A stretch of 64,000 bases of DNA from the sequence record NC_005066.1. The stretch is one strand, 5' to 3'. Both the position numbers and the translations under genes were made by a program. The notes beneath the pieces are model-generated. The model had not been told where the DNA came from. It made no database searches and saw only the letters and a list, made by a program, of their open reading frames with translations. Positions 2,716 to 38,489 of the stretch are shown one piece after another. Every line of letters starts with the position of its first letter. Position 1 is the first letter of the stretch. The DNA comes from Escherichia phage RB49.

Positions 2716-2964
2716 GCGACTAGCTGATAGACCATTGTTGAAACCAGAACTAGGATATAAACCGAAAGCGGTGTAACTTCGATTAGTCGGGAAATCTCAT
2801 TCATACTTCACCTCATACATTCATAAACACAACAACGAATAATACAGTAACAGTTATCAACGCCATTTTCAACCCCATATTCATAATATTTTCTTCGCCT
2901 CACGATGGACAGTAGCATGTCGATTCGTGCCATTATAGTCATCTAAATCGCTCTGTCAAGAACA

Positions 2965-2996
2965 AAAAAACAAAAAAGCCACCCCGAAGGATGGCT
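2965..2996 (-). terminator. Rho-independent terminator after hoc
   Basis: Imperfect hairpin agccacccc-gaagg-atggct with a flanking A/T run, 12 bp below the hoc stop. Confidence 0.45.
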
Positions 2997-3007
2997 GATA
3001 GATTTCA

Positions 3008-7329: not shown

Positions 7330-7737
7330 TTAGCGACCAGATTCCAGCATACGCAATTCTATAGCATTCTTGATCGCAAAGCCACGAGATTTAACGATAT
7401 CAAGTGCGCGACCAGCAAAATCCATTACCATCTGGTAATATGCAATTTTCGTATCAAGCGGTAAGATCTCGTCGTCTGCTGCCATGACAACTTTCAATTC
7501 TGATTTCTCATATTCAGCACGACACCAGTCATCACTACGGTTAGTGTAAAAGTCAAGACGATTTTTCATAGCCTTTTTCTTTTTAGCCTCAAGAGCAATC
7601 GTCTCTCTTTTCGCCTCGCTGTAAATCCTTAACCACTTTGAGTATACTACCGGATTATTCAGCGCCTCCCATTGCAACTTAGTCGCATCGATCTTCATGT
7701 CAGCTTCTAATTGTTCTTTCAAATCGTTTAGGTCCAT
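7330..7737 (-). CDS. uvsY: UvsY recombination mediator protein
   Basis: 135 aa; matches T4 UvsY as recalled (TKLQWEALNN, KSRGFAIKN). Confidence 0.85.
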   Translation of the reverse strand: MDLNDLKEQLEADMKIDATKLQWEALNNPVVYSKWLRIYSEAKRETIALEAKKKKAMKNRLDFYTNRSDDWCRAEYEKSELKVVMAADDEILPLDTKIAYYQMVMDFAGRALDIVKSRGFAIKNAIELRMLESGR

Positions 7738-7784
7738 AATATCCCCTTATTCACACTAAGACCTATATCATATCACACACAAAA

Positions 7785-8183
7785 TCACTTTGCAAGTCTT
7801 ATGCGTAGTTGTTCAAGATCATCTGGGTTGTCTATTACTGAAAAGTAGATTGATACTATGATTGAGTTATCGTCGTACTGCGGAGTTACTTCTACTGTCA
7901 GGTTTCGGACCCGTGGTTCATAGTTTCGGATCGCCTCATTGATGTTTTTTGATAAGGTATCCACCGTCAGTGGGTTCATGTTCTCAAACAAAGATTTATT
8001 GAGATCGCATCCAAACAGTGGATCAAATGGACGAGATCCCTTGCGAGTAGTCACGATCAGTAGAATAGAATCCTTAACCGCTTTAATCCCTATGTTCTTT
8101 TTAACGTCGTTATTCCACGATCTGGATATATTGAGATCCAAATCAGTATACATCTGATTAATAGTTGCCATGTTATACCTCAA
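7785..8183 (-). CDS. 25: gp25 baseplate wedge protein (lysozyme-like fold)
   Basis: 132 aa; TTRKGSRPFDP-FGCDL ... RNYEPR ... SVIDNPDD matches T4 gp25 as recalled. Confidence 0.85.
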   Translation of the reverse strand: MRYNMATINQMYTDLDLNISRSWNNDVKKNIGIKAVKDSILLIVTTRKGSRPFDPLFGCDLNKSLFENMNPLTVDTLSKNINEAIRNYEPRVRNLTVEVTPQYDDNSIIVSIYFSVIDNPDDLEQLRIRLAK

Positions 8184-8809
8184 AGAATTTTAAGGAAACT
8201 GGATAGACCTGATAATGAATATACACCAGATTCCCCGCATTCGCACTTGATCGGTACTGCCAGCGTGATTTGATTTCTTGTTAGCTCGTCGATCACTTCT
8301 TCCACTTTATCCGTGGTAAGCATATCCAGCACGCGGTCAAAGTCCTGTGCGTTCAGGTCGTCTATATTGAATTGCTGATCGCCGATCACGATATATTCGA
8401 TACATGCAATTACCATCTGCATAATATCAACATCTTCTGTAAACTTAGGTTGACGAAACTTGATTTTTACTTGTCCTAAGTCCAGAATATACGGTTCAAC
8501 TTCTGGTATCTGTGTGCGTGAAACATCAAGAGAGTATACTTTCTCTTTATTGCATACACCACACACCCAAGTAGCATCAAATTTCATCTTATTGAGGCTG
8601 TGACACCATAAGAGAAGAAAAATATATTCTGCTTCGCATTTCTCTAGCTCTAATGCATTGATCCCCGTACATTCATGTATGATCTCTATAACAACCTCTG
8701 ACAGCTTGCCAGTCTCTTTTGCTGCTACCAGTTTTTGAAATTCGCCGAAGGTGAAAGCACGGGCGTGTATCAACTTTTCGCCTAATTGGATCTTGAAAAA
8801 GTATTGCAT
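8180..8809 (-). CDS. 26: gp26 baseplate hub subunit
   Basis: 209 aa ORF in the syntenic position between gp25 and gp51, divergent from gp51; T4 gp26 is about the same size. Confidence 0.6.
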   Translation of the reverse strand: MQYFFKIQLGEKLIHARAFTFGEFQKLVAAKETGKLSEVVIEIIHECTGINALELEKCEAEYIFLLLWCHSLNKMKFDATWVCGVCNKEKVYSLDVSRTQIPEVEPYILDLGQVKIKFRQPKFTEDVDIMQMVIACIEYIVIGDQQFNIDDLNAQDFDRVLDMLTTDKVEEVIDELTRNQITLAVPIKCECGESGVYSLSGLSSFLKIL

Positions 8810-8851
8810 AATAAAACACCCTTTATAAACACATAGAATTATTTAGTATTT

Positions 8852-8859
8852 TATAAATA
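8852..8859 (+). promoter_or_regulatory. T4-type late promoter box TATAAATA
   Basis: Exact TATAAATA about 21 bp upstream of the gene 51 start, in the divergent 26/51 intergenic region. Confidence 0.5.
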
Positions 8860-8879
8860 CCCGAAAGGGGGATTATACC

Positions 8880-9650
8880 ATGAATATTATCCGAATAAAA
8901 CTACCGGAAGGTGTGCAGAGATTTAAACCGTTCACGGTAAAAGATTATAGAGATTTCCTTCTGGTGTCAACTGAAATTAAGATGAATCCAGAAGAAGAAC
9001 AAACGATTCTTGATGAGCTATTAGAAGAAATATATCCAGACGTAGACCCGGCATTTCGTGAATATATTTTCCTGAATGTCTTTACTAGTTCAATTGGTAA
9101 AACTAAGATACCGCTTTGTTTTACTTGCCCGACTTGCAACAAAGAAAGAAAAATGTTGCTTAACTTACAGGTTGAAGCACTAAAACCAATCGTTCTAGAG
9201 GCCGCAGGGCTTAAAATAACTTTCCGGTATGTTAAACCATCAACCGACTATGCAAAAACGTTTCTGGATGCGATAGAGCGTGTATCTGATGGTATTAATG
9301 ATTATCTATGGACTGAATTACCGGAAGAAGTTAGAGAACAGGTTATAGATTCAATCTCATTTGCTGAATTTGAAGAAGTTGTTAAGCAGATGCACACAAT
9401 CAAGATCGAACAAAAGATATCTTGTTGTGAAAGTCATGACCTGAAATACATAGGTCTTCTTCCATTGTTCAAATTGTTGTTGAATCCAGATGAGTTATTC
9501 ATCTTTTATCGAATAAACCATCTATTGGCAAAATCAAATTATTCTATCAGTGATCTTATGGATATGTTACCGATTGAGAGAAACATTGCACTGACACTGG
9601 TCGAGAAAGACGTAAAAGAGGCAAATAATGCAAAGAACGGGGTTTCCTAA
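8880..9650 (+). CDS. 51: gp51 baseplate hub assembly catalyst
   Basis: 256 aa; position and size as T4 gp51; CxxC pairs. Confidence 0.6.
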   Translation: MNIIRIKLPEGVQRFKPFTVKDYRDFLLVSTEIKMNPEEEQTILDELLEEIYPDVDPAFREYIFLNVFTSSIGKTKIPLCFTCPTCNKERKMLLNLQVEALKPIVLEAAGLKITFRYVKPSTDYAKTFLDAIERVSDGINDYLWTELPEEVREQVIDSISFAEFEEVVKQMHTIKIEQKISCCESHDLKYIGLLPLFKLLLNPDELFIFYRINHLLAKSNYSISDLMDMLPIERNIALTLVEKDVKEANNAKNGVS

Positions 9651-10737
9651 TGTCTCAATAAAACTTTATCAGGATTATGAGGCATTTCTAAATCATCGCT
9701 TTATAGAGTTGGGTGCTACCTTTGTTACAATGACTCTGCGTGATTCGATTCGTGGGGTGAACGAAGGATTGTTGCAATTCTATGATAATAAGGTGATGCA
9801 TACAAAATTAAACGGGAGAGAGATCATTCAGATTTCGCTATCCACTGCTAATACAGATGAAGTGTTTAACCGAATCTATGGGATCTCTCATAGTAATGTA
9901 ACAATTGACCAAAAATCCGACAATATTTTAACATTCCAGTTAAAGAGCTATCACGAAACATTAAACCTTAAATTTTCTCGCTCATTGACAAATAACGCGG
10001 TTAATAACGTAACTAGCATGATTGATGCCATCTATAAGGAAGTTCCTTTATGGAAACCTACTATAAAGGGTGATAACGTTGTTATTCCTCGTTGTCCGTG
10101 GGTTAGTACCATAAATGACTATATGGATTTTGTGAGGGCATACGGGCAAAGCGTAGAAACAGAGTCTTTCGTGTATTGCTGGGAAGATTTTGATGGTATA
10201 ACGATCGCTGGACACGATACAATATTAAAAAATGAGCCAATACCAGCTATAATCTGTGAGCCTAGACTCATGGGGCAGTTTATTGATATGTCGCCTAATC
10301 TGATGGTTTTTAATTTCGAGTGGCAGACTAAGAGTAATGCTAAAGTTAAAAATTCATTTAGCAATGTGACATACACAACTATTGATTTTGTTACTAAGCA
10401 GTATAATAAAATTGTTGTTGGTAATGGGGATAATATTGCACACTTTGCTCATGGTGGCGCTTATGGTAATTTAACTTATAAGAATGCGTTTTTGGAAGGT
10501 TCTAAACTTGCCACAATAGAACAATATGATTCATATGCTACCGCCGTGTGTCACGGTAATTTTTCGTTGCGCCCCGGTATGGTTATTCGATTCTTTGATG
10601 AGAAACAACAAGCACGCAATGATTTTATTGTTGACGAAGTTGTGCATGAAATTAGCCGAGAGCAATCATTAACTCACCTGTATATGATCGGTAACAGCGA
10701 AGAATTACAGGAAGTCAAATTTGAAGGTAAGATATAA
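9628..10737 (+). CDS. 27: gp27 baseplate hub subunit
   Basis: 369 aa; position and size in the 51-27-28-29-48-54 block. Confidence 0.65.
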   Translation: MQRTGFPNVSIKLYQDYEAFLNHRFIELGATFVTMTLRDSIRGVNEGLLQFYDNKVMHTKLNGREIIQISLSTANTDEVFNRIYGISHSNVTIDQKSDNILTFQLKSYHETLNLKFSRSLTNNAVNNVTSMIDAIYKEVPLWKPTIKGDNVVIPRCPWVSTINDYMDFVRAYGQSVETESFVYCWEDFDGITIAGHDTILKNEPIPAIICEPRLMGQFIDMSPNLMVFNFEWQTKSNAKVKNSFSNVTYTTIDFVTKQYNKIVVGNGDNIAHFAHGGAYGNLTYKNAFLEGSKLATIEQYDSYATAVCHGNFSLRPGMVIRFFDEKQQARNDFIVDEVVHEISREQSLTHLYMIGNSEELQEVKFEGKI

Positions 10738-15014: not shown

Positions 15015-15492
15015 CTAAATCATTGCAATATTTTAGTGCCTTAGTTTGAAATTCTGCGCTGTTAAGTTCTTCATAACGGTCATAATCACCGTTTAATGCT
15101 GCCTTTCTTGCTTCTTGCTCTATCTGCATGTCAGACATGATAATACAGCGATCCCGCGCTTTCATCTTCTCAAGTTGTATAGACTCTTCTTTCTGCTTGC
15201 GCAATTCTTCTTGACGCTTCTTTTCTTCTTGTGCTTTCTCTTCCCGCGCTTCTTTGATTGCATCCTTGAACATCTGCGTTTGTGGTGCTAAACCAACTTT
15301 AACTCGATCTACGTCTCGACGTTCCATTTTAGAAATAAAGCATGATTCGATCTGATCATCACTTGCATATGCTGCTTTACATTCACGAAGCAAGAAAACC
15401 GGATCTGATTTAGCATTCATCATAGCTTCCATGTTGGCACAACCAGTAAGCATGAATACAGCCGCAAGACCAATCAGTTTAATCATTTTCAT
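15007..15492 (-). CDS. Putative lipoprotein with a charged coiled-coil region
   Basis: 161 aa; N-terminal signal with lipobox LTGC; start overlaps the stop of the upstream ADP-ribosyltransferase gene. Confidence 0.55.
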   Translation of the reverse strand: MKMIKLIGLAAVFMLTGCANMEAMMNAKSDPVFLLRECKAAYASDDQIESCFISKMERRDVDRVKVGLAPQTQMFKDAIKEAREEKAQEEKKRQEELRKQKEESIQLEKMKARDRCIIMSDMQIEQEARKAALNGDYDRYEELNSAEFQTKALKYCNDLAK

Positions 15493-16313
15493 TTAGTCAC
15501 CTCACCGAAAATTGTAAATTGTCTACGATTCTCATCGCCGAAAGATTCTACTACGTCGTTTACCTTGACGCAAGTCCCGCGCGGTAAAATTACTTCACAT
15601 TCGCAAGGGTTCCATGCAATGGACCCAACAACAAAACCTTTATGATCTTTTACGTCAATTACCCATGATACATTACAAGAATGTTGCATCTTTCCGGTCA
15701 TTGATTCATATCGATTCTCACAATAAAGGCTAGTGCTGTTTGATAGCCATCCTCCAAAGATGATCGGTGTCATGCTGGTTGACACAAAGTTTTTAAAGGT
15801 AAATTCCTTATCTTCAATAATACGCTCTATTGTCTGAATGTCAAGATGTTGACCGCGATAAAGAGTACCGTTTAACTTTTCGGTTTTATCCATGACGCAA
15901 TCCATCAAATCAACAATCTCTGATATCTCATCGGTCATGTCTTCTTCCCCTAAGAGAGCACCATTTACCCATTCGTATTGCTCAGACACATAATCACAGA
16001 TTGCATTATATTCTGCTGGTGTTATGTTGTTATGTTTGTAATGTTTGAATACATTATCTCCAAAGTCTTCGGAGTGTACTTCATACATCACATTAATGAT
16101 TTTCTTGACAAATCCATAATCTTGTGTCTCACGCTCAAGGAAGCGGATAACCTTCACATAATCATCAAAGTTAATCTGATCGCTGATCATCTCAGTGATC
16201 ATGTAACCATTAATCCCCTCAATGTCATATGTTTCAATATAATTGTCCATACGTTCCATCATTGATTCGCGTGATTCTTCCGAAAGACGAAAATCCTGTA
16301 ATTTCTTGAACAT
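15489..16313 (-). CDS. ADP-ribosyltransferase, Alt/Mod-like R-S-E class, short paralogue
   Basis: 274 aa; LYRG...FVSTS...ECEVILPRG motifs, parallel to the C-terminus of the adjacent Alt. Confidence 0.7.
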   Translation of the reverse strand: MFKKLQDFRLSEESRESMMERMDNYIETYDIEGINGYMITEMISDQINFDDYVKVIRFLERETQDYGFVKKIINVMYEVHSEDFGDNVFKHYKHNNITPAEYNAICDYVSEQYEWVNGALLGEEDMTDEISEIVDLMDCVMDKTEKLNGTLYRGQHLDIQTIERIIEDKEFTFKNFVSTSMTPIIFGGWLSNSTSLYCENRYESMTGKMQHSCNVSWVIDVKDHKGFVVGSIAWNPCECEVILPRGTCVKVNDVVESFGDENRRQFTIFGEVTK

Positions 16314-16336
16314 TTTAAACCTCCCATATAACAGAA

Positions 16337-16367
16337 AACGGGGCTAGTATAAAACTAGTCCCCGTTT
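16337..16367 (-). terminator. Rho-independent terminator between alt and the downstream ART gene
   Basis: Hairpin aaacggggctagt-ataaa-actagtccccgttt. Confidence 0.5.
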
Positions 16368-16390: not shown

Positions 16391-18442
16391 TTACATTTTA
16401 AATTTATCTGGCATTGCGTCTACAGATACCAGATCAGCGATAAGCTGACGTAGAGTTGCCTTATCTGCTTTCTTACGTTCGGTTTTAGCTTCGCTAATGA
16501 AGCTGGAGAAAGACAGGTCAGAAGCAGGTTTAACAACACCTTCACGGATGAATGCATCACCGTCCGCGATCATCTCGCCAGATTCTTGTAATGCTGCCAG
16601 TTCATTTTTGTTCATAATATGTGCCTCAATGTAATAAGTTTCTTGTGAATCCGTCGATGCCGTAGCACGAGTTACCGTATCAAAGGATAACACAACACCG
16701 CGAGGAAGTAAAATCTCGCATTCTTTGTAAGCAAATGCTTTGTTACCTACTGGCAAGACAGGGATGTTTTCCGCGCCAGCAATGGAGAAAGCAACATTGG
16801 CGCCACCTTCACCGCGAGAGCCAGCCATAGAATCAACACCAGCAACGGCACTAGCCACGTTTGCATTCCAGCCGCCAAAAATGTTAGGTGCAAGGGAAGT
16901 GCTCACATAGTTTTTAAAGTAAAACGCTTTTTGCTTACGTGCAGTTTCCCACATTTGCGACCGGAAGTCCATACCACGATACAGAATAGTACCCGGATCA
17001 AGTTTAACGCCATAGTTGGAGAAGGCATTATCCAGTGCATCGCACATCTTGACCAATTCTTCTGGATCTGATATGCCTTCAAACTCTTCCAGCTTGCGGT
17101 CGGTTAGGAAGTTGTTCATATTGATGTATGCTGCATCGGCATATTCGCTCAACACAAAACCTTCCGCGCCTGGCAGATCAAGATCAATATCTGCCATCAT
17201 TTCACCCATGTTGCTAGCAATTGCTTCAAACATACCGGAAGCAACATTACGTAGGGCATCGGTTTTAATCTGGGTGATATGACTACGCAGCATTTCAGCT
17301 TTTACATCTGCTGGCATAGACTGGTCTACTCGATCCATTGCCAGGGCGGTGATCTTGTTTTCGAATACTTCCTCGCTCATGATTTCTTTTAAGCGTTTGA
17401 CCGAGGCTGCGATAACTTCCGCAGACAACGGATCATATTGATCCTGAACTTTTACCAGTTCGCTTACTGCGTATTTTGCATCGGCTTCGCTTTCAAAAAT
17501 AGTACGCATGAAACCATAGCGAGTGATAATATCACTTGTCCAGTCATTCAGAGAACGGGCGGTTGAACGTTCTAAGGCTTGACGGTCAATCAGAGTATTA
17601 AACTGTTTCTTAGGTTCGGCTTCGGTGATATCTTCTTCCGGTTTAAGATTAATTTTTTCTGGATGATTCACATAGTCGCTGTTATAGGTCGCTTGAGTTT
17701 TCAGCATTTCTTCTTTAGTCAAACGAGATTTAGCCGCTACGCGTTGTTCTGCTTCCGCGTTTCGTTCTTCTTCTGACACAAGACTAGCCGCATACGCTTC
17801 ATCTTTAGTCAGAGATTCACCAGTAGCCTTAGATACCCAGCGATCACCTAAATCACTTTCTACTTTAGTGAACAAGGATTCATCAAGTTTAATCCCTTTA
17901 ATCTTATCAATCGCCATCCCGCGACGCTTGACAACAACTAAAGCGATCTTTTTGCTGGTCATTACTTCCTGCTGGAATACTTCAAACTTCGGTGTACGAC
18001 GCACCAAACGCTCTATAACGCGCTTAACCAGTTCGGTCTTACCTTTCATGCGGGATACGTTAAAACGGAACATAACAGCGTCTAATTGCGATTTACGGGC
18101 TGTTTCCATAACCACATCAAAAGCACTTGCCATGACTGCAATCGGGTTATCGCCTAGACCATTTTTAAGCTGTACAATACGACCGCTTTTGTTCATTTCG
18201 CACAGTACAACATGTGCGGTCTTGTCACCCATACGAATGATTTTAGGTGTTTTGTTGGTGAAGTTACAAAGACGGACAATCACATCTTTATCGCGTGTCT
18301 GTACTGCAAAAAGCTGTTTAGGATTCTGCTTAGGCTTTAAGCACTGTACCGGAGCAATACTGCCAAAGTTTTCTTCCTCTTCCGTCAACAGCCATTTCTC
18401 GAAAGATTCAATCATTAGATCGTCGATTTCTAAGTTAAACAT
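16391..18442 (-). CDS. alt: Alt ADP-ribosyltransferase (packaged, modifies host RNA polymerase)
   Basis: 683 aa (T4 Alt is about the same); C-terminal ART motifs LYRG, YVSTS, ECEILLPRG. Confidence 0.8.
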   Translation of the reverse strand: MFNLEIDDLMIESFEKWLLTEEEENFGSIAPVQCLKPKQNPKQLFAVQTRDKDVIVRLCNFTNKTPKIIRMGDKTAHVVLCEMNKSGRIVQLKNGLGDNPIAVMASAFDVVMETARKSQLDAVMFRFNVSRMKGKTELVKRVIERLVRRTPKFEVFQQEVMTSKKIALVVVKRRGMAIDKIKGIKLDESLFTKVESDLGDRWVSKATGESLTKDEAYAASLVSEEERNAEAEQRVAAKSRLTKEEMLKTQATYNSDYVNHPEKINLKPEEDITEAEPKKQFNTLIDRQALERSTARSLNDWTSDIITRYGFMRTIFESEADAKYAVSELVKVQDQYDPLSAEVIAASVKRLKEIMSEEVFENKITALAMDRVDQSMPADVKAEMLRSHITQIKTDALRNVASGMFEAIASNMGEMMADIDLDLPGAEGFVLSEYADAAYINMNNFLTDRKLEEFEGISDPEELVKMCDALDNAFSNYGVKLDPGTILYRGMDFRSQMWETARKQKAFYFKNYVSTSLAPNIFGGWNANVASAVAGVDSMAGSRGEGGANVAFSIAGAENIPVLPVGNKAFAYKECEILLPRGVVLSFDTVTRATASTDSQETYYIEAHIMNKNELAALQESGEMIADGDAFIREGVVKPASDLSFSSFISEAKTERKKADKATLRQLIADLVSVDAMPDKFKM

Positions 18443-18485
18443 TTTATATCCTCTAGTTGATAACCTATAAACCTATATTTATGAA

Positions 18486-21179: not shown

Positions 21180-21347
21180 TTATTTGTTAATTTCTGGTGC
21201 GTTGCTAGGATAGTAACCTTCTTTAACTCCGAGGTATTTCGCAACCATCCCTACAATCTTCTGTGCTACTACAATGTCAAATTTCAGATAATCTTCGCCG
21301 TGGGTTTCAACGATATATGCTTCACATGCTGCTTTAGTCTCGAACAT
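21180..21347 (-). CDS. Hypothetical small protein, duplicate of 25506..25673
   Basis: 55 aa (MFETKAACEAYIVETHGEDYLKFDIVVAQKIVGMVAKYLGVKEGYYPSNAPEINK), near-identical in DNA and protein to the ORF at 25506..25673. Confidence 0.55.
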   Translation of the reverse strand: MFETKAACEAYIVETHGEDYLKFDIVVAQKIVGMVAKYLGVKEGYYPSNAPEINK

Positions 21348-22707: not shown

Positions 22708-23019
22708 TTAAAAATTCTTGCTATATATGCAAGCCTCATAATCTAGAGGATGACCGCCAATCCTACCAGGCTTAATATTCCAACCGCATCGATATTTTCT
22801 GACCATGCTAACCGTTTCGGTTCTTAGAGCATTTCTTTGCAAATCATACCCCCTAAATTCTTGTCTATAAGGACAGTCCGCTTTGCAAGTTGGCGGTTCT
22901 ACGTCATTTAGCGGGTCGGAAGCAGTTGGCTTTATTATCAATTCTTTGTTTGCAATAATCATAAGCACATCCCATTGAAGACAATTTAACATCTTCGCAA
23001 TAAGTGTTGAATCCGTCAA
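22708..23019 (-). CDS. Hypothetical protein (start uncertain; overlaps 22904..23095 in another frame)
   Basis: 103 aa ORF; the upstream half overlaps the better-supported 22904..23095 gene, so the true start may be internal or non-ATG. Confidence 0.3.
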   Translation of the reverse strand: MTDSTLIAKMLNCLQWDVLMIIANKELIIKPTASDPLNDVEPPTCKADCPYRQEFRGYDLQRNALRTETVSMVRKYRCGWNIKPGRIGGHPLDYEACIYSKNF

Positions 23020-23095
23020 ATACGATCACTTCGTATTTGACTCCATCAGCGATAGCTTTTACTTTATACCATCCATGCTTGTATAAAATCTTCAT
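22904..23095 (-). CDS. Hypothetical small protein
   Basis: 63 aa with GAGGAAA RBS and promoter cassette upstream. Confidence 0.5.
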   Translation of the reverse strand: MKILYKHGWYKVKAIADGVKYEVIVFDGFNTYCEDVKLSSMGCAYDYCKQRIDNKANCFRPAK

Positions 23096-23157: not shown

Positions 23158-23188
23158 CAACTTTTTTAATTTTTTGGGAAATAAAAAA

Positions 23189-23206
23189 GCCGACGCTAAG
23201 GTCGGC
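23189..23206 (-). terminator. Stem-loop terminator
   Basis: gccgac-gctaag-gtcggc with T-run on the minus strand, after the 23215..23523 gene. Confidence 0.55.
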
Positions 23207-23214
23207 TAATAAAA

Positions 23215-23523
23215 TCATTTGGACAAATAATCATTCTGTGCAATCCGGTCGGCGTATGCTGGTGTTATGTCAATCGCCAGCACTTTAACGCGTGCTTTCT
23301 TGCGACCTGGGTTTTCTCGTAACCAGTGCTCATGACCGTGAACATTTTTATACTTTGATGCTTCTTCAAATGTACGGATCGGACCTGGGTAATCAGCGTA
23401 AAGGATCTCTAGGTCTTCGGTGATGTAAAAATATACATCGTAATTACTGTTCTCTAGTTTAAGCAGAGAGTTGCGAAATTGTGGTAAATTCTCGCGGGTA
23501 AATTCAACTACAAGATTTTTCAT
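23215..23523 (-). CDS. HxHW-family small protein, paralogue A
   Basis: 102 aa; shares YxYITEDL...HGHEHW...VKVLAIDI pattern with five other ORFs in this region. Confidence 0.55.
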   Translation of the reverse strand: MKNLVVEFTRENLPQFRNSLLKLENSNYDVYFYITEDLEILYADYPGPIRTFEEASKYKNVHGHEHWLRENPGRKKARVKVLAIDITPAYADRIAQNDYLSK

Positions 23524-23548
23524 AGTGATATCCTCATTCAGATAGATT

Positions 23549-23569
23549 AAAAGGGGCTTAACGCCCCCC
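23549..23569 (-). terminator. Rho-independent terminator
   Basis: Hairpin ggggc-ttaa-cgcccc with flanking T-run on the minus strand. Confidence 0.5.
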
Positions 23570-23574
23570 GTATA

Positions 23575-23862
23575 TTAAAACAGTCCTTCCTGTACACCGT
23601 AGTAGAGTTCGTCACTGATAATTTCATTAATGCGACGGTGTGCATATTCCTGATTTGCGAAGTTATCAGCAAGTTCTACTTTAGTTTCGCCGTCATGAGT
23701 CCATTTAGTGATAACTTTACCATCTGCAAATTTGAAGTTGAACTCTTTAGCTACTGCATCGCGTACCAGACGTGCGAACTTGTTGTTACGGATGGCATTA
23801 TCGGTTTCGTGTGCAGCGTGAGCGAATTTGTTAACTTTCAGAGTGATAGTAATGTATGCCAT
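23575..23862 (-). CDS. Hypothetical protein, paralogue of 26891..27220
   Basis: 95 aa; VRDAVAKEFNFKF resembles VRKALAKEFNTKI in the 26891..27220 product. Confidence 0.5.
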   Translation of the reverse strand: MAYITITLKVNKFAHAAHETDNAIRNNKFARLVRDAVAKEFNFKFADGKVITKWTHDGETKVELADNFANQEYAHRRINEIISDELYYGVQEGLF

Positions 23863-23937
23863 AATTTGATTCTCCTAGTTAGAAAGTGTATCTCGTTTCG
23901 ATGGGGATATTATGCTATATCCCCGATCCGGTGTCAA
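23863..23937 (-). promoter_or_regulatory. Early promoter cassette
   Basis: TTGACA ... GGGGATAT-AGCATAAT ... conserved leader. Confidence 0.55.
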
Positions 23938-23943
23938 CACTTT

Positions 23944-24237
23944 TTATAAAATAATTTTTTGATATTTTTCTATGATGTTTGTGTAGGTCACGTCAACCGC
24001 TAGCACCGTTGCTTCGAATCCACCGTTTAGCCAATGGCTATGATCATGATCGTGAAAGAAACCTAGACCAGTACGAAGACCTTCTTTATATTCTGCGCGT
24101 ACATTCAGTTTGTCGTCGATAAACAGATAAAACCATGAATTTTTACTAGGATTGATGATACAACCTTTCAGATTAGGAAGAATATCACGACTAAGAATAA
24201 ACTTATCACCTACTTTGAACATAATATTAGTCCTCAC
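23944..24237 (-). CDS. HxHW-family small protein, paralogue B
   Basis: 97 aa; FYLFIDDKL ... HDHSHW ... TVLAVDV. Confidence 0.55.
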   Translation of the reverse strand: MRTNIMFKVGDKFILSRDILPNLKGCIINPSKNSWFYLFIDDKLNVRAEYKEGLRTGLGFFHDHDHSHWLNGGFEATVLAVDVTYTNIIEKYQKIIL

Positions 24238-24628
24238 TTATAAGGTCAAACCAATTGTTTTTCGCATAATGCTTAATGCGTGCTTGATCTGCTTCCGCTG
24301 GTGATAGATTCCATGCAACCACTACAACTTCTGACGCATCGTCATCCGTTTCTGATACCCAATGATTGTGATTCATACAGTTATTTGCTATCGAGTGAGC
24401 AAATGATTTCATCACTGGAGACGTATAATCATAGTAACGGATTTTCAGATTTTCATCAACGTACAAGTAGATCGTATACGGCTTATATTCAGTAACCAGT
24501 AACAGACAGTTACGCAATTCTGGGAAAATCTTTTTAGTTAATTTCATTTTATAATCCTCGGTCTCGGCTATAGTACACGGTACGCCATACAATTTCATGT
24601 TTCGTGTCGCTCCAGCACACGATCTCAT
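24227..24628 (-). CDS. HxHW-family small protein, paralogue C (start probably internal Met)
   Basis: 133 aa ORF; LYVDENLKIRYYDY ... HNHW ... VVVVAW. Confidence 0.5.
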   Translation of the reverse strand: MRSCAGATRNMKLYGVPCTIAETEDYKMKLTKKIFPELRNCLLLVTEYKPYTIYLYVDENLKIRYYDYTSPVMKSFAHSIANNCMNHNHWVSETDDDASEVVVVAWNLSPAEADQARIKHYAKNNWFDLISED

Positions 24629-24788
24629 TTACTCTTAAATCTTTGTTATCAACAAAAGATGAACATTGTGACGCTTCTTTCATCATTTTATCTGCTGTTT
24701 TCTCATCAAATACAGCACAGATTTCTTTATACACTCGATAATCTTTGAATTGACTCTGAATACCCATAATTAACACCATTCCAACCAA
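24549..24788 (-). CDS. Hypothetical protein, paralogue of 24727..24990
   Basis: 79 aa ORF; SQFKDYRVYKEICAVFDEKTADKMMKEASQCSSF parallels the neighbouring gene. Confidence 0.45.
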   Translation of the reverse strand: MVGMVLIMGIQSQFKDYRVYKEICAVFDEKTADKMMKEASQCSSFVDNKDLRVNEIVCWSDTKHEIVWRTVYYSRDRGL

Positions 24789-24990
24789 TTGTTTTTGAGA
24801 AAACGTTTATCCACTGTTGAGTGTAGCATGTTTCTTTCCATGATACAATACGAGTGGAATAATGGTTTTTGTTTCCAGAAAAGGACGGGCATTTTGATGC
24901 ATCTTCCATCATCTTTTCGGCGAACTCTGGTGCGTATACTCGCAGGATCTGTTGATATGCTTTGTATTCTTTAAATTTGCTCATAATCAT
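24727..24990 (-). CDS. Hypothetical protein, paralogue of 24549..24788
   Basis: 87 aa ORF; SKFKEYKAYQQILRVYAPEFAEKMMEDASKCPSF. Confidence 0.45.
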   Translation of the reverse strand: MIMSKFKEYKAYQQILRVYAPEFAEKMMEDASKCPSFSGNKNHYSTRIVSWKETCYTQQWINVFSKTIGWNGVNYGYSESIQRLSSV

Positions 24991-25249
24991 TCACTACCTT
25001 ATCAGCTTCTTTTGTTGTTTTTACATCAACTGCGATAACTCGTAAAGGTTCGTCATGGTTCCACCAGTGGTCATGAATATCAGCTTGTGATTTATCACCA
25101 AAGGAATCACGAATATCATTTTTACATTTATAGCTAATGTGACCTTCATAGTCAACATAAAGGTAATTATCGAAAATCGGCGTTTTTAAGATCATACCGA
25201 AAAATCTTTCTTTGTGTGTCTTATCCAGCGTTGCAGTAATTCGCATCAT
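24971..25249 (-). CDS. HxHW-family small protein, paralogue D
   Basis: 92 aa; YLYVDYEGH ... HDHWW ... RVIAVDV. Confidence 0.55.
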   Translation of the reverse strand: MMRITATLDKTHKERFFGMILKTPIFDNYLYVDYEGHISYKCKNDIRDSFGDKSQADIHDHWWNHDEPLRVIAVDVKTTKEADKVVNDYEQI

Positions 25250-25261
25250 AATATATTCCTC

Positions 25262-25441
25262 TTAGAAAGGGATGGTCATTTCTTGAGCTTGTACATTCTC
25301 GTTAGGATTAAACTTCATCCAGCCGATATTGTCTACCAGCATATGCACATTTTTATCATATCCTACGTGAGTAGTCAACACTAAATGTGCTTTACCTTCA
25401 ATGATGAGTTCCATGTACTTCTGAACTTCGATAGCTTTCAT
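25262..25441 (-). CDS. Hypothetical small protein, first gene of a six-gene operon
   Basis: 59 aa ORF (MKAIEVQKYM...), hand-translated; promoter cassette and GGAGAATC RBS upstream. Confidence 0.4.
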   Translation of the reverse strand: MKAIEVQKYMELIIEGKAHLVLTTHVGYDKNVHMLVDNIGWMKFNPNENVQAQEMTIPF

Positions 25442-25443
25442 TT

Positions 25444-25502
25444 TGATTCTCCGTTTGTTGTCTTGATGGGAGTATCTTACTACTCCATTTAATCATTGTC
25501 AA
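25444..25502 (-). promoter_or_regulatory. Early promoter cassette, GGGAGTA/TACTCCC-palindrome class
   Basis: TTGACA-17 bp-TAAGAT with inverted repeat GGAGTAGTAAGATACTCCC. Confidence 0.5.
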
Positions 25503-25505
25503 CTA

Positions 25506-25673
25506 TTATTTGTTAATTTCTGGTGCGTTGCTCGGATAGTAACCTTCTTTAACACCTAGATATTTTGCAACCATTCCGGTGATCTTCTGTGCTACTACGA
25601 TATCGAATTTCAGGTAGTCTTCACCGTGGTTTGCTACAATGTATGCTTCGCATTCTGCTTTAGTCTGGAACAT
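25506..25673 (-). CDS. Hypothetical small protein, duplicate of 21180..21347
   Basis: 55 aa from the internal Met of the listed 25506..25709 ORF (the 5' extension covers the promoter). Confidence 0.55.
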   Translation of the reverse strand: MFQTKAECEAYIVANHGEDYLKFDIVVAQKITGMVAKYLGVKEGYYPSNAPEINK

Positions 25674-25736
25674 TTTTGATTCTCCTATATCTCGTTGGTA
25701 TGTGTGCATTATAGGGGATCACCGATCCCCTGTCAA
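25674..25736 (-). promoter_or_regulatory. Early promoter cassette with palindromic spacer
   Basis: TTGACA-GGGGATCGGTGATCCCC-TATAAT-conserved leader. Confidence 0.6.
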
Positions 25737-25741
25737 CAACT

Positions 25742-26092
25742 TTATAATGCTTTATATGCGTATTTCATAAATTTGTCTGCCACTTCATTGGCATGTTCAG
25801 ATTCTACGCCTGATTCGAGAACAATAGCTAGGTCGGTTTCGTCATTCCCGCCGTACCAATGATTTGATGTTCGATTTTTTTCAATTGGAAATTGGTCACT
25901 TTTATCTGTGCGACAAAATACATCTAAATGCTCGTCGATGTAAAAGATCCAATCTTCATAAAGAATAACGGTATTAGCAAGATTTTTATTGCCTTCAACG
26001 AAAGGTTCCGCGACAAATAGCTTAGTTTGTTCCATAGTAATTTCCTCAAAATTATACAGTTTCGTAAACTTCCCAATGTTCAGCGCCAACAC
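25742..26092 (-). CDS. HxHW-family small protein, paralogue E (likely starts at internal Met near 26035)
   Basis: 116 aa ORF; FYIDEHLDVF ... SNHWYGG ... LAIVLESG. Confidence 0.5.
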   Translation of the reverse strand: MLALNIGKFTKLYNFEEITMEQTKLFVAEPFVEGNKNLANTVILYEDWIFYIDEHLDVFCRTDKSDQFPIEKNRTSNHWYGGNDETDLAIVLESGVESEHANEVADKFMKYAYKAL

Positions 26093-26243
26093 GCTTAACG
26101 AAAAGGTTTTCTTTGATGTTATTCATAAACGTCTGGATGGATTTAATGCGGTTTGAAGGTTTCCATTCTTCGTTGGCATTGCGTCGATACATCATAACAT
26201 TACCAGTTCGCTTATATTCAGCAACCATTTTAAGACCACACAT
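26052..26243 (-). CDS. Hypothetical small protein
   Basis: 63 aa ORF; possible promoter (TTGACA at 26316..26321) upstream. Confidence 0.4.
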   Translation of the reverse strand: MCGLKMVAEYKRTGNVMMYRRNANEEWKPSNRIKSIQTFMNNIKENLFVKRVGAEHWEVYETV

Positions 26244-26300
26244 AATATTATCCTCAATTTGTGGGAGAGTATTACCCCTCCCAATGATTGTTATGTTATA

Positions 26301-26621
26301 TCACACAAAATGGCGTGTCAATGCTTCTTTTGCGGTTCCGCTAAGACTTTCAATCTCGCCTGGCATAACATCAACCGCCAGAACTTCTACAACATCCTCG
26401 GACCCTAACCAGTGAGTATGGCCTTTGTAGAACTTGATAACCAGACCACCTTCCTCGTCCCATTTAACGCTATCGCTAGCCCACCACACATCACCGTCGA
26501 TAAAGTTGATGTAAAGCACACTACGCCACATTGAATTAATTACTTTCAATACTGCGCCTTTCATCTCTTCCACGGTATGGTCTTCCATTTTGAAGACCTC
26601 ACCTACCTGAACTTTTGCCAT
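26301..26621 (-). CDS. HxHW-family small protein, paralogue F
   Basis: 106 aa; YINFIDGDVW ... GHTHW ... VEVLAVDV. Confidence 0.55.
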   Translation of the reverse strand: MAKVQVGEVFKMEDHTVEEMKGAVLKVINSMWRSVLYINFIDGDVWWASDSVKWDEEGGLVIKFYKGHTHWLGSEDVVEVLAVDVMPGEIESLSGTAKEALTRHFV

Positions 26622-26638: not shown

Positions 26639-26818
26639 TTACATAACAATCACGCCAGCCGTTGAAAGTTGATGTTTCAACTGAGCATTTTCTGCTACCG
26701 TCAAATCAATGATTTCTTGTGACGCTGCAATCATATAGCCATTGGTGATATTGTTTTGCATCAGTTCAATGGTTTCTTCGTTGTAGCGGATTTTAGCGAT
26801 GATTTCGTTGAAGTTCAT
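26639..26818 (-). CDS. Hypothetical small protein
   Basis: 59 aa from the internal Met (MNFNEIIAKI...) of the listed ORF; the 5' extension overlaps the promoter cassette. Confidence 0.5.
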   Translation of the reverse strand: MNFNEIIAKIRYNEETIELMQNNITNGYMIAASQEIIDLTVAENAQLKHQLSTAGVIVM

Positions 26819-26881
26819 AATTGATTCTCCTAGTTCGTTTCGGTATGTGTGTAGTATAGGGGATCGGTGATCCCCTGTCAA
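26819..26881 (-). promoter_or_regulatory. Early promoter cassette with palindromic spacer
   Basis: TTGACA-GGGGATCACCGATCCCC-TATACT-ACACACATACCGAAACGAA. Confidence 0.6.
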
Positions 26882-26890
26882 CAACTTTTT

Positions 26891-27220
26891 TTAAAGTTTT
26901 TCCATGATAACGGTCATAATTACATCTTCTGCGCGAGCTGTCAGATTATCAGCGTCAGCATGTGGGCGGTTGGTTGTTACAGAGATAACACCGTTGCGCA
27001 CTGGTTTGATATTGATATCAAGATGATCCGCGAAACGTTCGTGATCCGCGAAACGTTCGCCAGTTACAGAATGAATTTTGGTGTTAAATTCTTTTGCCAG
27101 TGCCTTGCGAACTTCACGAATCAGGATAGCGTTTTTCAGTTGGTTCTCCGCGCTCATGGTCTTCTGGGTGTTCATGGTTCCGTCGAAGTCAATCATTGGC
27201 AGCGTTACGATGTATTTCAT
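26891..27220 (-). CDS. Hypothetical protein, paralogue of 23575..23862, containing an in-frame 18-bp tandem duplication
   Basis: 109 aa; ERFADH-ERFADH encoded by a tandem 18-mer at 27025..27060. Confidence 0.5.
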   Translation of the reverse strand: MKYIVTLPMIDFDGTMNTQKTMSAENQLKNAILIREVRKALAKEFNTKIHSVTGERFADHERFADHLDINIKPVRNGVISVTTNRPHADADNLTARAEDVIMTVIMEKL

Positions 27221-27294
27221 TTTTGATTCTCCGTTTAAGAAAGTGTGTTTCGTTTTGATGTGTGTAGTATAGGGGATACGTGATCCCCTGTCAA
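27221..27294 (-). promoter_or_regulatory. Early promoter cassette
   Basis: TTGACA-GGGGATCACGTATCCCC-TATACT-leader. Confidence 0.55.
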
Positions 27295-27307: not shown

Positions 27308-27652
27308 TTATTTTTTCATGAGCTTAATGGCTTCTTCCATAGCCAGCACATTTCGATAGTTAGGGTATCGTGTTAGATCGTCATACATTCGCTTAAGGGT
27401 GGAAACTTCCTCAAACTCTGGGTTTTCTAGATACAGTTGAACAAATTGTTTCTCTACCATCTCTGCTTTTAGCTTGTCTGCTTGTTCCTGTTCATATGAT
27501 TTAGTTGGACCCAACACCAACAAAATGATAAAGGTGATCAACGGGCTAATGATCAACGATAGGAGAACATAACCGATAACGCTACGGTTTAAACGGCTTG
27601 CGTACATGCCTACTAGGAAAACAAAAAGGATATAGATAAACAGAAAGAACAT
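27308..27652 (-). CDS. Small membrane protein
   Basis: 114 aa; two hydrophobic helices at the N-terminus. Confidence 0.5.
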   Translation of the reverse strand: MFFLFIYILFVFLVGMYASRLNRSVIGYVLLSLIISPLITFIILLVLGPTKSYEQEQADKLKAEMVEKQFVQLYLENPEFEEVSTLKRMYDDLTRYPNYRNVLAMEEAIKLMKK

Positions 27653-27659
27653 ATAATGG

Positions 27660-28133
27660 TTACTCCTTATTTTCTCGCTCGTACTTTTCGAAATAAAATT
27701 CTACTGGCTGGTCATGAATTGACAGCAAGCCAAAGCGTTTAGCCGCTCGCAATCCCATATTGCGCTGAATGTACTTCTGGAAGTTCTCGCGTATACACTT
27801 ACGCCAGTATTCTAAGCCCATACAGCTTTTATAAAGATTGCATTGCACACACGCCGGATTCATGTTATCAAGTATATCATGTTCCGGTTTATGCATTCCT
27901 ACAACCTTATACTTCCACGATCCATCATCATTACGGGCAATTCGTCCATTTTCATCATAGACTACCTTTGAGCGTCGCAATACTGGTTTGATGTGGTCTG
28001 CGTGCCAGCGATCCCCTAGTTCCTCGCCACAATAGGCACAACGTCCACCATATTTCATTTTCAGGATCTGGCGTTGCTCTTTCTTTGACAATTTTTTAGG
28101 TTTAGGGGCTTTCGCCCCTTCATTATCACACAT
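27660..28133 (-). CDS. HNH endonuclease (free-standing, homing-endonuclease-like)
   Basis: 157 aa; CAYCGEEL ... HADHIKP ... CVQCN HNH zinc-finger motif; start overlaps the DNA ligase stop. Confidence 0.7.
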   Translation of the reverse strand: MCDNEGAKAPKPKKLSKKEQRQILKMKYGGRCAYCGEELGDRWHADHIKPVLRRSKVVYDENGRIARNDDGSWKYKVVGMHKPEHDILDNMNPACVQCNLYKSCMGLEYWRKCIRENFQKYIQRNMGLRAAKRFGLLSIHDQPVEFYFEKYERENKE

Positions 28134-29628
28134 CGAATACCTCTTTTACTGTATTTGCAGTGGTCTTGTCGTAGCGAATACGTTTGATGATTGGGAGAAA
28201 TAAAGAGAACTCCGGTTCATCTTCTTTACGTGATTTGCTGCGGATATACCCGTTGCATGTCATCTCAATGACTTTTCCAATCAGGTTATGACGGTCAGTC
28301 CATAACATTTCTCGGTCGAGTTCATTTCGACGATCGAACGGAATTACACGTTCAGTACCATCATCACCTTTTTCGGTTGTAGTGTCGGTTAATCCCGATC
28401 CGGTGTTAGTCATCATTCGTCCGCACGCACTACGGACAGTAAAACCGCCTACCTTATTGGGGTCTTTACTATGCGGATATACATCAACAATTTCCGCGTC
28501 GAAGTCAATCACTTCTTTAAATTTAACCTGATCTTTACTACGGCGATCTTCAAATACACCATGTAAATTTTTAAGGATAATACCTTCTAAGCCCATGTTT
28601 ACATAGCGATGATATACTTCGCGAGCTTCATCTATATTGTTAACTACAGTGTTTTCGATTATCTGAACACGAGGATCGTTAAGTTCTTCAACAATCTGTT
28701 TTAGTTCTTCGAATCGATCTTTATATTGCTTCGTTGCTTTCTCATTTCCGTAATACACATCACGGTCGATAACATCCCAGACAGTATAAACAATACATTG
28801 GGCTTCTTCTTTTGGAATAGTTCCTTTAAGTGATTTGTTGAGGATACCATTTCCAGTCTGACGGTCTGCAACAACGGATTCTTTCACTGCTTCCGCTACT
28901 GGCGTTAATGGCATTTCCTCTTCTTCAAATATCCATGACAGAGTACCATCATAAACGCTCTCAACGAAGTTCTGCGCTGGTGTTTGCGAAAGGGTAGGCA
29001 TATATACCAATTCGCCATCTAGAACAATTCCACGGCCTCGTAGACGCTCTAAAACCGCAAACAAATCATCAAGCCCTTGATAGGTATTACCTGAGCGGGT
29101 ATAGATTGCTAATGTTTCCCCGTCAATATCAGCCATACCACGAGCGCCATCGCTTTTAAGTTGTGCATACGCCGGATATTTGATATTGGCAATGGTCTTA
29201 TCAGAACATGACGATGCAAGGTGGCACGGCTGCTGGGGGATCAGTTTCTTCCATACCTTGTTTGCAGTGGTAGCGGAACAACCGCATTCCAGGTCACGAT
29301 TCAGGACCATCATTGCAACTTTAGCATCATCTTCTGACAAGCAAGTCAGAGTATCGGTAACTAGCTGTAATGCTGCATTACCAGTTACTTGACGTGTTGC
29401 AAGTTTATTTTTAAAGACCTGCAATGCACCGGATAAAGACAATACAGACGAATAGCGAGACGGTTTATCGTATTTCTTTACGCCAAACGTAACCTGTTTG
29501 CAATATGCCAGATAAAAGCATTCTTTCAGCGTTTCATTGCTCGCGGATTCTTTCAGAATCTTTTCTTTCAGCGATGTTTTGTCTGTTGCTGCAAGCTGAT
29601 TAATGATATTAAGAATTGACATTTTCAC
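28126..29628 (-). CDS. 30: ATP-dependent DNA ligase
   Basis: 500 aa; adenylation motif LKSDGAR (KxDGxR) and ligase motifs; T4 gp30 is a similar size. Confidence 0.8.
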   Translation of the reverse strand: MKMSILNIINQLAATDKTSLKEKILKESASNETLKECFYLAYCKQVTFGVKKYDKPSRYSSVLSLSGALQVFKNKLATRQVTGNAALQLVTDTLTCLSEDDAKVAMMVLNRDLECGCSATTANKVWKKLIPQQPCHLASSCSDKTIANIKYPAYAQLKSDGARGMADIDGETLAIYTRSGNTYQGLDDLFAVLERLRGRGIVLDGELVYMPTLSQTPAQNFVESVYDGTLSWIFEEEEMPLTPVAEAVKESVVADRQTGNGILNKSLKGTIPKEEAQCIVYTVWDVIDRDVYYGNEKATKQYKDRFEELKQIVEELNDPRVQIIENTVVNNIDEAREVYHRYVNMGLEGIILKNLHGVFEDRRSKDQVKFKEVIDFDAEIVDVYPHSKDPNKVGGFTVRSACGRMMTNTGSGLTDTTTEKGDDGTERVIPFDRRNELDREMLWTDRHNLIGKVIEMTCNGYIRSKSRKEDEPEFSLFLPIIKRIRYDKTTANTVKEVFDV

Positions 29629-37981: not shown

Positions 37982-38149
37982 TCACTTTTTAACACAAAAG
38001 AACTTAGTATTTCTGTTTATTTCGCTATCCTGCTGCAATTCCTGCACAGCTTCAAAACAATTTTGATATGATGAAAACTCTACGCTGGTAACAGTTCCTT
38101 TATTATATACGCCGACGCTAACGGAAAGCAATAACCATAATGTAGCCAT
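37982..38149 (-). CDS. Small protein with hydrophobic N-terminus, paralogue 1
   Basis: 55 aa (MATLWLLLSVSVGVYNKG...), hand-translated; TAATG overlap with the upstream paralogue. Confidence 0.4.
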   Translation of the reverse strand: MATLWLLLSVSVGVYNKGTVTSVEFSSYQNCFEAVQELQQDSEINRNTKFFCVKK

Positions 38150-38322
38150 TAGTTCACCTTTTGTTTTTCAACGCAATATAGATTCATAAAGCGTTTATTG
38201 TCTTCGCGGATAATCTCGCGAGCTTTAACGCAATCCTGCTTTGTTGCAAACTCAATGCTTGACATATTTCCGTAATTATACATTGAATTGCTTATTGCAA
38301 TCAATAACCATACAGTAGCCAT
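38149..38322 (-). CDS. Small protein with hydrophobic N-terminus, paralogue 2
   Basis: 57 aa (MATVWLLIAISNSMYNYG...), hand-translated; tandem duplicate of the preceding gene. Confidence 0.4.
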   Translation of the reverse strand: MATVWLLIAISNSMYNYGNMSSIEFATKQDCVKAREIIREDNKRFMNLYCVEKQKVN

Positions 38323-38489
38323 TATCCGACAACCTCAAAACATTTATCATCAGGAAGAATCGCCCATTCTACACCGTATTCATCCTCGACGTAGTAGCAA
38401 GTCCCATCATGTCGAGCATCATATTCATCACCAACAACAAAGCTATCAGCTAGTTCAAAATCTACAGCAACACATTTTAATTTGGTCAT
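38322..38489 (-). CDS. Hypothetical small protein
   Basis: 55 aa from the internal Met (MTKLKCVAVDFE...) of the listed 76 aa ORF; promoter cassette upstream. Confidence 0.45.
   Translation of the reverse strand: MTKLKCVAVDFELADSFVVGDEYDARHDGTCYYVEDEYGVEWAILPDDKCFEVVG

Follow-up and report, generated by a model that had tools for sequence, protein, structure and literature searches.

Six divergent paralogs of one small domain, the HxHW family, in the alt–ligase variable region of Escherichia phage RB49

Six small genes and one shared domain

The 64,000-nucleotide stretch of the Escherichia phage RB49 genome analyzed here (NC_005066.1; referred to below as the window) harbors an array of six small minus-strand genes, p1 to p6, whose products are treated in this study as the HxHW family. 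The array lies in a variable region of approximately 10 kb bounded by the ADP-ribosyltransferase gene alt and by gene 30, which encodes the DNA ligase (28126-29628), where RB49 carries about 25 orphan genes, six of which belong to this family. The RB49-like T4-type coliphages constitute the Krischvirus group, and the six-gene array sits in their alt–ligase variable region: the segment 22500-27500 of the window was 89–97% identical to 57 phage records, and all records inspected were Krischvirus. The six products are identical to the RB49 entries AAQ15426 (ORF197c), AAQ15428 (199), AAQ15429 (200), AAQ15432 (203), AAQ15435 (206), and AAQ15437 (208), each of which bears the database name 'hypothetical protein'. 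The genes, with protein lengths in amino acids (aa), are the following:

23215..23523, minus strand: p1, RB49 open reading frame (ORF) 197, 102 aa, with HGHEHW and a GAGG Shine-Dalgarno site; identical to AAQ15426.1
23944..24222, minus strand: p2, RB49 ORF199, 92 aa, with HDHDHSHW; start at ATG 24222, not GTG 24237
24227..24547, minus strand: p3, RB49 ORF200, 106 aa, with NHNHW; start at ATG 24547, not 24628
24971..25249, minus strand: p4, RB49 ORF203, 92 aa, with IHDHW
25742..26035, minus strand: p5, RB49 ORF206, 97 aa, the most divergent member, with SNHW; start at ATG 26035, not GTG 26092
26301..26621, minus strand: p6, RB49 ORF208, 106 aa, with GHTHW

In charge, the small, soluble products range from neutral to acidic (pI 4.5–6.9, net charge −0.2 to −10), and p3 is located 4 nt upstream of p2. 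An earlier note on this DNA had listed the same six ORFs, all of which exist on the minus strand, but had drawn p2, p3, and p5 too long at the 5′ end. We consider those three starts over-extended because the corrected ones (24222, 24547, and 26035) have a GAGG Shine-Dalgarno site at the right distance upstream, which the longer versions lack, because the PHROG profile match begins only at residue 6 (p2), 25 (p3), and 20 (p5) of the longer ORFs, and because the shorter forms are also used in the GenBank annotation of Sf20, Phi1, and GEC-3S.

The divergence among the paralogs is considerable, with pairwise identities of just 18–34%, and BLASTP within the window detected only the p1–p3 pair (E 1e-13). 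In PHROGs, the six proteins fall into five families of unassigned function (9345, 17255, 15972, 15965, and 16486; E 1e-48 to 4e-72) with weak cross-hits among them. In contrast to this partition into separate families, the cross-hits, profile searches, profile–profile comparison, and structure models obtained here join them into one superfamily. The window contains 592 stop-to-stop ORF segments, all of which were searched with leave-one-out hidden Markov models (HMMs), and the omitted member was always the best match outside the training set, with E-values of 9.6e-14 (p1), 5.9e-8 (p2), 1.1e-12 (p3), 3.9e-7 (p4), 8.6e-4 (p5), and 2e-7 (p6); the best unrelated ORF had an E-value of at least 0.015. 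For p5, the weakest member by this measure, an hhalign comparison of ten p5-type sequences with nineteen other sequences gave a probability of 97.8% (E 1.3e-12), aligned over YIDE, HW, and VLxxxV, and the metagenomic proteins P0072 and P0075 (WLFYIDxxMN...HNHWW...VEVLATNV) are intermediates that link p5 with the other members. No seventh member was detected by the HMMs among the 592 ORF segments. Two other ORFs, 7333-7746 and 7788-8189 (both minus strand), recurred in several leave-one-out profiles as the best non-family matches at E 0.04–0.25 (7–9.5 bits), which is not significant and probably reflects chance.

Conservation was scored in 23 family sequences below 80% identity. The conserved columns comprise Y33, I34, D35 (91%), V40, H64 (91%), and the fully conserved H66 and W67 (100%), followed by V81-L82-A83, D85 (61%), V86, A91, and D92. 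The alignment and the profile–profile comparison that the earlier note had named as checks provide statistical support for the scaffold it had described, so that the YLYVDE-like, HxHW, and VLAVDV-like motifs are real and the six ORFs are very divergent copies of one domain, related by common descent.

Predicted fold and candidate relatives

AlphaFold2 models of p1 and p2 were built from alignments of 51 and 46 sequences, respectively. Both were confident, with a predicted local distance difference test (pLDDT) score of 86.2 and a predicted template modeling (pTM) score of 0.82 for p1, and 87.1 and 0.81 for p2. The two models exhibit the same order of elements, namely a strand, a short helix, three strands, a long loop, a one-turn helix, a fifth strand, and a C-terminal helix, in which YLYID is predicted to be the third strand overall (β3) and VLAVDV the fifth (β5). 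The HxHW motif is placed on the one-turn helix that ends the long, variable, and lower-confidence β4–β5 loop. On these models, one compact α/β domain is predicted to be common to the family.

Searches for a known counterpart of this domain returned little. Scans of the members with Pfam, NCBIfam, and PADLOC gave nothing above the cut-offs, and the matches to MSC_0621 and ISL3 (14.7–16 bits) were regarded as noise. In the sequence search against the PDB, the six-sequence profile matched only 1yb3 (E 0.47 over 33 residues) and the 51-sequence profile matched none. Within BFVD at E ≤ 0.01, the p1 model retrieved only uncharacterized Krischvirus proteins of the family's size, with TM-scores of 0.82 at 33% identity and 0.59–0.68 at 18–22% identity. 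The recurrent weak structural matches comprised papain-like sheets (Cif, C39, and Josephin), the Tas1 immunity protein, AcrIIA7, Tad2, eL14, mS34, and MazF, the last three of which are SH3-like. The earlier note had been unable to assign a known domain from the sequence alone; none can be assigned from these libraries, profiles, and structure searches either, and no match to a well-characterized housekeeping family emerged from the domain-library and structure searches.

Tad2 and AcrIIA7, which share the DUF2829 fold, were weakly matched by both the p1 and p2 models. One alternative is that the HxHW proteins are very divergent relatives or analogs of these sponges, the oligomers of which would sequester nucleotide immune signals, one per paralog. 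Tad2 likewise comprises approximately 90 aa, with a five-stranded antiparallel sheet and a long β4–β5 loop that contains a short pocket-lining helix (bioRxiv 10.1101/2023.05.01.538930). A forced alignment is also collinear, pairing YLYID with PYIYMK, HW with PW, and VLAxDV with LAEDW, and the natural fusion P0066, described below, suggests oligomers. DUF2829 membership is nevertheless unsupported at the sequence level: with the DUF2829 signature confirmed on PDB sequences and 35 PF11195 proteins aligned, hhalign gave a probability of 0.1% (0.05% with E 0.83 in trimmed/local form), and none of 46 members matched PF11195 in Pfam even at E ≤ 10. In our reading of the Tad2 report (bioRxiv 10.1101/2023.05.01.538930), LAEDW lies in a loop/helix region, whereas VLAVDV is a predicted strand here, and the order of the N-terminal elements differs. 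Furthermore, the HxHW family possesses a C-terminal helix, and neither group shows the signature of the other, HxHW plus Asp being missing from DUF2829 and GWNGKGM from the HxHW family. The distributions are equally dissimilar, DUF2829 being very widespread with at least 7,998 matches, whereas the HxHW family has 19 representatives in 1.84 billion proteins. We therefore regard a relationship of this kind as quite unlikely.

The conserved residues themselves invite a second alternative, in which the proteins would be small metal-dependent enzymes, with the Asp and the His-x-His forming a catalytic metal center, for instance that of a JAMM-like isopeptidase or of a phosphoesterase with a host molecule as substrate. 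An invariant His-x-His together with a near-invariant Asp at 18–34% identity is seen more typically at chemical sites than at interfaces that serve only protein–protein contact, and p2 bears the extended HDHDHSHW. A weak match to PROCT, an MPN-related domain, was also obtained in four members, but the best one (E 0.0017, 18.7 bits) lies below the 23.6-bit cut-off and was set aside as noise. The alignment exhibits neither a conserved Ser-x2-Asp after the HxH nor an upstream Glu in the JAMM register, the proteins (92–106 aa) are smaller than such catalytic folds, and p5 is conserved yet lacks the first His. Together these features make an enzymatic role improbable. Individual assignments fared no better: the JAMM/MPN pattern E...HxHx(7)Sx(2)D, to which the PROCT match had drawn attention, fails on the missing Ser-x2-Asp and on the absence of any MPN fold match, and the papain-like reading fails because p1 and p6 contain no cysteine. 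Overall, the JAMM, HIT, metallo-β-lactamase, cupin, and papain-like readings of the HxH were rejected on motif spacing, size, lack of Cys, and lack of fold matches.

A third alternative takes up a third-party name, 'KOW2-KOW3 domains of Spt5', given to the p2 ortholog P0058, and sees in the domain a derived SH3/KOW-like barrel that would bind RNA or the transcription/translation machinery and modulate host gene expression. The N-termini of p2, p6, and P0066 (VGD...LKG.I) do resemble the KOW motif; against this, the motif is missing in p1, p3, p4, and p5, no Pfam KOW match was obtained, and a net charge of −0.2 to −10 is unfavorable for nucleic-acid binding. We consider this possibility very unlikely.

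Promoter cassettes, gene neighborhood, and distribution

Throughout the region, cassettes of 40–95 nt recur (repeat families D1, D2, D4, and D5) that are PeSLs, each a sigma-70 promoter joined to a stem-loop terminator (Arbiol et al. 2010, PMC2839356). Minus-strand promoters with 10–12 of 12 consensus matches were located at 27294, 26881, 25736, 25502, 23937, and 23157. The signals and interleaved genes around the array are, in the direction of transcription:

26853..26881, minus strand: PeSL promoter TTGACA-17-TATACT, 11/12 matches, repeats D1 and D2; heads ORF209-p6-ORF207-p5
26639..26818, minus strand: ORF209, 59 aa, directly upstream of p6
26052..26243, minus strand: ORF207, 63 aa, between p6 and p5
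25708..25736, minus strand: PeSL206/205, a perfect 12/12 promoter directly downstream of p5 that drives ORF205
25474..25502, minus strand: PeSL-type promoter TTGACA-17-TAAGAT, repeat D5; heads ORF204-p4-ORF202-ORF201-p3-p2
25262..25441, minus strand: ORF204, 59 aa, first gene of the p4-to-p2 unit
24549..24990, minus strand: ORF201 (24549-24767) and ORF202 (24727-24990), overlapping tandem paralogs with 40% identity (E 7e-14), both phrog_8471
23909..23937, minus strand: PeSL promoter TTGACA-17-CATAAT, repeats D1 and D4; heads ORF198-p1 and overlaps the 3′ end of p2
23575..23862, minus strand: ORF198, 95 aa, phrog_7474, paralog of ORF210 (26891-27202, minus strand)
23552..23569, minus strand: terminator-like hairpin separating ORF198 from p1; listed as a terminator in the GEC-3S annotation
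23188..23207, minus strand: terminator-like hairpin after p1, annotated in GEC-3S and G2248

The family members are thus contained in three predicted units, ORF209-p6-ORF207-p5, ORF204-p4-ORF202-ORF201-p3-p2, and ORF198-hairpin-p1-hairpin. Because a hairpin separates ORF198 from p1, p1 would depend on read-through. Early expression from sigma-70-type PeSL promoters is well supported by these predicted signals, which agrees with the earlier description of the locus as a hyperplastic early region: it corresponds to the region from alt to the ligase gene, with its cassettes of sigma-70 promoter and stem-loop. The homolog of PeSL206/205 yielded approximately 13,000 Miller units in lacZ assays and is a very strong promoter (PMC2839356).

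The PeSL-flanked orphan cassettes of the RB49 and phi1 variable regions (PMC2839356; Comeau et al. 2014, PMC4122927) concern the same region and the same genes, since ORF197-208 lie between ORF187 and gene 30 with the same flanking cassettes, including the tested PeSL206/205. The resemblance to that system extends to small, nonessential-looking genes that differ between related phages by presence/absence and replacement, and PeSL cassettes have been proposed to mobilize orphan genes (PMC2839356). PMC2839356 treats the ORFs as unrelated database orphans, whereas six of them constitute one family here, and a term search of that paper returned no mention of paralogy, gene duplication, or gene families among these ORFs. 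Besides the family, we also recognized the pairs ORF198/210, ORF201/202, and ORF191/205 as paralogous; ORF210 is an orphan gene for which PeSL mini-circles were reported by Arbiol et al. (PMC2839356). The genes have been known as orphans since the RB49 and phi1 genome papers. The searchable literature yielded no paper that treats the six ORFs as one family or addresses their function and no characterized homolog, and it appears to contain no report of their unification, of the conserved site, or of the lack of a known fold.

Only Krischvirus and a small number of uncultured relatives carry the family. When 1.84 billion representative proteins were searched exhaustively by HMM, 19 representatives at 50% identity were retrieved (E ≤ 0.001); word-index searches added only close variants, and iterating them yielded no new relatives. 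With distant members as queries, tblastn against 50,697 phage genomes returned only the set of coliphage and Shigella-phage records that the DNA search had already identified, and a scan of 2.9 million IMG/VR contigs with a subfamily alignment recovered two loci, both Krischvirus-like. The placement between alt and the gene 30 DNA ligase was seen in Sf20, Phi1, GEC-3S, and JSE. The distant members stem from three contigs of uncultured relatives (L002, L003, and L005). L005, a 20 kb contig with a ligase 72% identical to that of RB49, has two p5-like genes between HNH/ligase and Alt, in the equivalent slot. The 2.1 kb contig L002 exhibits the order ORF209-like (67%), p6-like (50%), ORF204-like (56%), P0066, p4-like (38%), and p3-like (44%), in which P0066 is a p2-like natural tandem fusion of two domains, and L003, from the same sample, contains a p5-like gene (49%). 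Since the p2–p6 subtypes are present in these distant contigs, they are older than Krischvirus. The array is an old, lineage-specific expansion of an approximately 95-aa domain that has been ordered and retained.

In L002, the adjacency of the ORF209-like (25-213) and p6-like genes is kept, and the ORF204-like gene (633-812) again lies directly ahead of family members. ORF209 and ORF204, of 59 aa each, head both multi-member transcription units of RB49 as well as standing directly ahead of family members in L002, and they may cooperate with the family or regulate it. L005 also carries an ORF202-like gene and an ORF198-like gene, the latter 70% identical and more conserved than any HxHW member. 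ORF201 and ORF202 lie between p4 and p3, and the start of ORF201 is uncertain.

Further duplications were observed elsewhere in the window. ORF191 (21180-21347, minus strand) and ORF205 (25506-25673, minus strand; phrog_8009) are near-duplicate 55-aa genes with 91% amino acid identity, each contained in a 172-nt direct repeat (86% nucleotide identity) with its own PeSL. The long ORF at 16394-18472 (minus strand) is probably Alt, and the adjoining 283-aa ORF at 15492-16343 (minus strand) is 37% identical to it over 109 residues, which suggests a second, shorter ADP-ribosyltransferase paralog, as annotated in L005 (PF03496). Two slightly overlapping 60-aa tandem duplicates (37985-38167 and 38152-38334, both minus strand) are 37% identical (E 3e-13), and the ORFs 8183-8842 (minus strand) and 8847-9647 (plus strand) form a divergent back-to-back paralog pair with 25% identity over 215 residues (E 1e-11). 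Next to the ligase gene, ORF212 (27660-28133, minus strand) encodes a 157-aa HNH endonuclease and shares 8 nt with the 3′ end of that gene; the L005 counterpart of ORF212 is 87% identical, compared with only 72% for the ligase. Two PeSL-flanked genes, ORF196 (22904-23095, minus strand) and ORF211 (27308-27652, minus strand; a predicted membrane protein in the Sf20 annotation), occur in only four and three of nine Krischvirus loci, respectively; with PeSLs on both sides, they are polymorphic in presence/absence in the way ascribed to PeSL recombination. The same variable region of Sf20 (contig L001, corresponding to about 19.5-21 kb of the window) contains genes for a methyltransferase and a DUF262 protein (2423-3139 and 1574-2092), and the variable-region methyltransferase is annotated as a C-5 cytosine DNA methylase in several phages. 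Such methyltransferase and DUF262 gene types are tied to restriction and counter-restriction. To our knowledge, RB49-like phages lack the cytosine hypermodification of T4.

Selection, allele replacement, and proposed role

The earlier note had expected diversifying selection on the six genes, and this expectation did not survive the dN/dS check. Ratios of nonsynonymous to synonymous substitution rates (dN/dS, Nei-Gojobori) over nine Krischvirus loci were 0.22 (p1), 0.09 (p2), 0.30 (p3), 0.25 (p4), 0.26 (p5), and 0.16 (p6), compared with 0.05 for the HNH gene and the ligase and 0.00–0.78 for the interleaved orphan genes, the maximum being that of ORF210 and resting on almost no substitutions. 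In the sliding-window analysis, which is valid without the p1 rows because a paralog in the IMG/VR contig L015 had been taken as p1, the only 20-codon window above 1 covered p6 residues 21–40 (1.52), on very few changes (pN 0.024, pS 0.016). Each slot is under purifying selection.

The divergence between phages is instead concentrated in discrete slot alleles. The p4 allele is 57–58% identical in Phi1 and GEC-3S, that of p5 is 72–73% identical, and that of p3 is 54% identical in JSE. The dS values reach 0.39–0.51 at the p3, p4, and p5 slots and 0.78, the highest of the region, at ORF201, compared with 0.05–0.11 in the flanks. Because dS is high together with dN at p3, p4, and p5, divergent alleles appear to have been imported by recombination rather than generated by positive selection in place, a signature of allele replacement that fits PeSL-mediated shuffling. 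The array itself is not freely shuffled, in contrast to the PeSL picture, since its order is stable: six family hits were found in fixed order in nine of nine loci. The exception is one of type: a 111-aa p3-like gene with 46% identity to p3 stands in the p2 slot of JSE (L009 7042-7377), which leaves JSE with two p3-type and no p2-type copies. Upstream of p6, JSE and G2248 both carry an additional 88-aa gene (9566-9832 in JSE) that the window lacks.

Under ongoing diversifying selection, the paralogs would be fast-evolving variants chasing a changing host target, and several observations lean that way: the paralog identity of only 18–34%, the p3, p4, and p5 alleles of 46–73% identity between phages with near-identical flanking genes, and dN/dS values two to six times that of the ligase. 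However, the gene-wide ratios of 0.09–0.30 with no robust 20-codon window above 1, the climb of dS (0.39–0.51) along with dN in the divergent slots, and the maintenance of order and subtype identity across a divergence at which the ligase is only 72% identical all point away from such an arms race, to which we assign little probability. At the other extreme, the genes could lack a function of their own and be passengers of PeSL-mediated cassette shuffling, as they sit among the proposed mobilizers of orphan genes (PMC2839356) and as some loci (JSE, kvi, and L015) have single copies missing or frameshifted. This is extremely unlikely, given that dN/dS is well under 1 for all six, that the loci examined retain intact frames with Shine-Dalgarno sites, that the His-x-His-Trp is invariant over deep divergence, and that the AlphaFold2 folds are confident.

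The reading we prefer is that the HxHW proteins would be small binders that engage host components within the first minutes of infection, in host takeover or counter-defense. The Asp after β3 and the His-x-His-Trp would constitute a shared metal- or small-ligand-binding site, and the variable N-terminus, the β4-HxHW loop, and the C-terminal helix would give each paralog its own target. Separate targets would explain the retention of all six, and the natural two-domain fusion P0066 suggests that the domains work as dimers. A role in host takeover or anti-defense, as proposed from the early-type promoters, small size, and location, is plausible. The composite of early host-directed or counter-defense binders, shared Asp/His/His/Trp site, paralog-specific targets, and dimers is tentative, and we place it a little short of an even chance. 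A narrower version, in which the HxHW domain would be an unrecognized fold with a ligand/metal pocket and the six, probably homo- or heterodimeric, would be immediate-early counter-defense proteins, each neutralizing a different immune signal or effector, seems to us rather unlikely.

Several points weigh against the composite. The putative metal/ligand site is deduced from conservation, and the spatial proximity of D35, H64, and H66 is presumed; p5 lacks the first His of HxHW, and in p1 the Asp position is taken by Thr. The family dN/dS, at two to six times the core-gene values, would also fit weakly constrained accessory proteins. Furthermore, single copies are dispensable, as p1 and p5 are frameshifted in JSE and p1 is truncated in kvi (P0048), while the 12 kb read of L015 yielded no p1 and a p2 alignment of only 64 residues.

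The picture of PeSL-mediated shuffling is refined by the stable array order found here, the variation consisting mainly of allele replacement and single-gene decay. T4-type variable regions hold most of the uncharacterized genes of these phages and probably serve as a reservoir of host-takeover and anti-defense functions; reducing six orphans to one family leaves fewer unknowns and defines mutational targets (H64, H66, W67, and D35), and proteins of approximately 95 aa are a tractable set for toxicity, pull-down, and defense-library screens. If the pocket and counter-defense reading is true, the HxHW proteins would constitute a novel family of sponges or inhibitors peculiar to RB49-like phages. 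Should the domain bind an immune signal or a defense protein, it would represent a new anti-defense family; otherwise, it would be one more lineage-specific accessory family.

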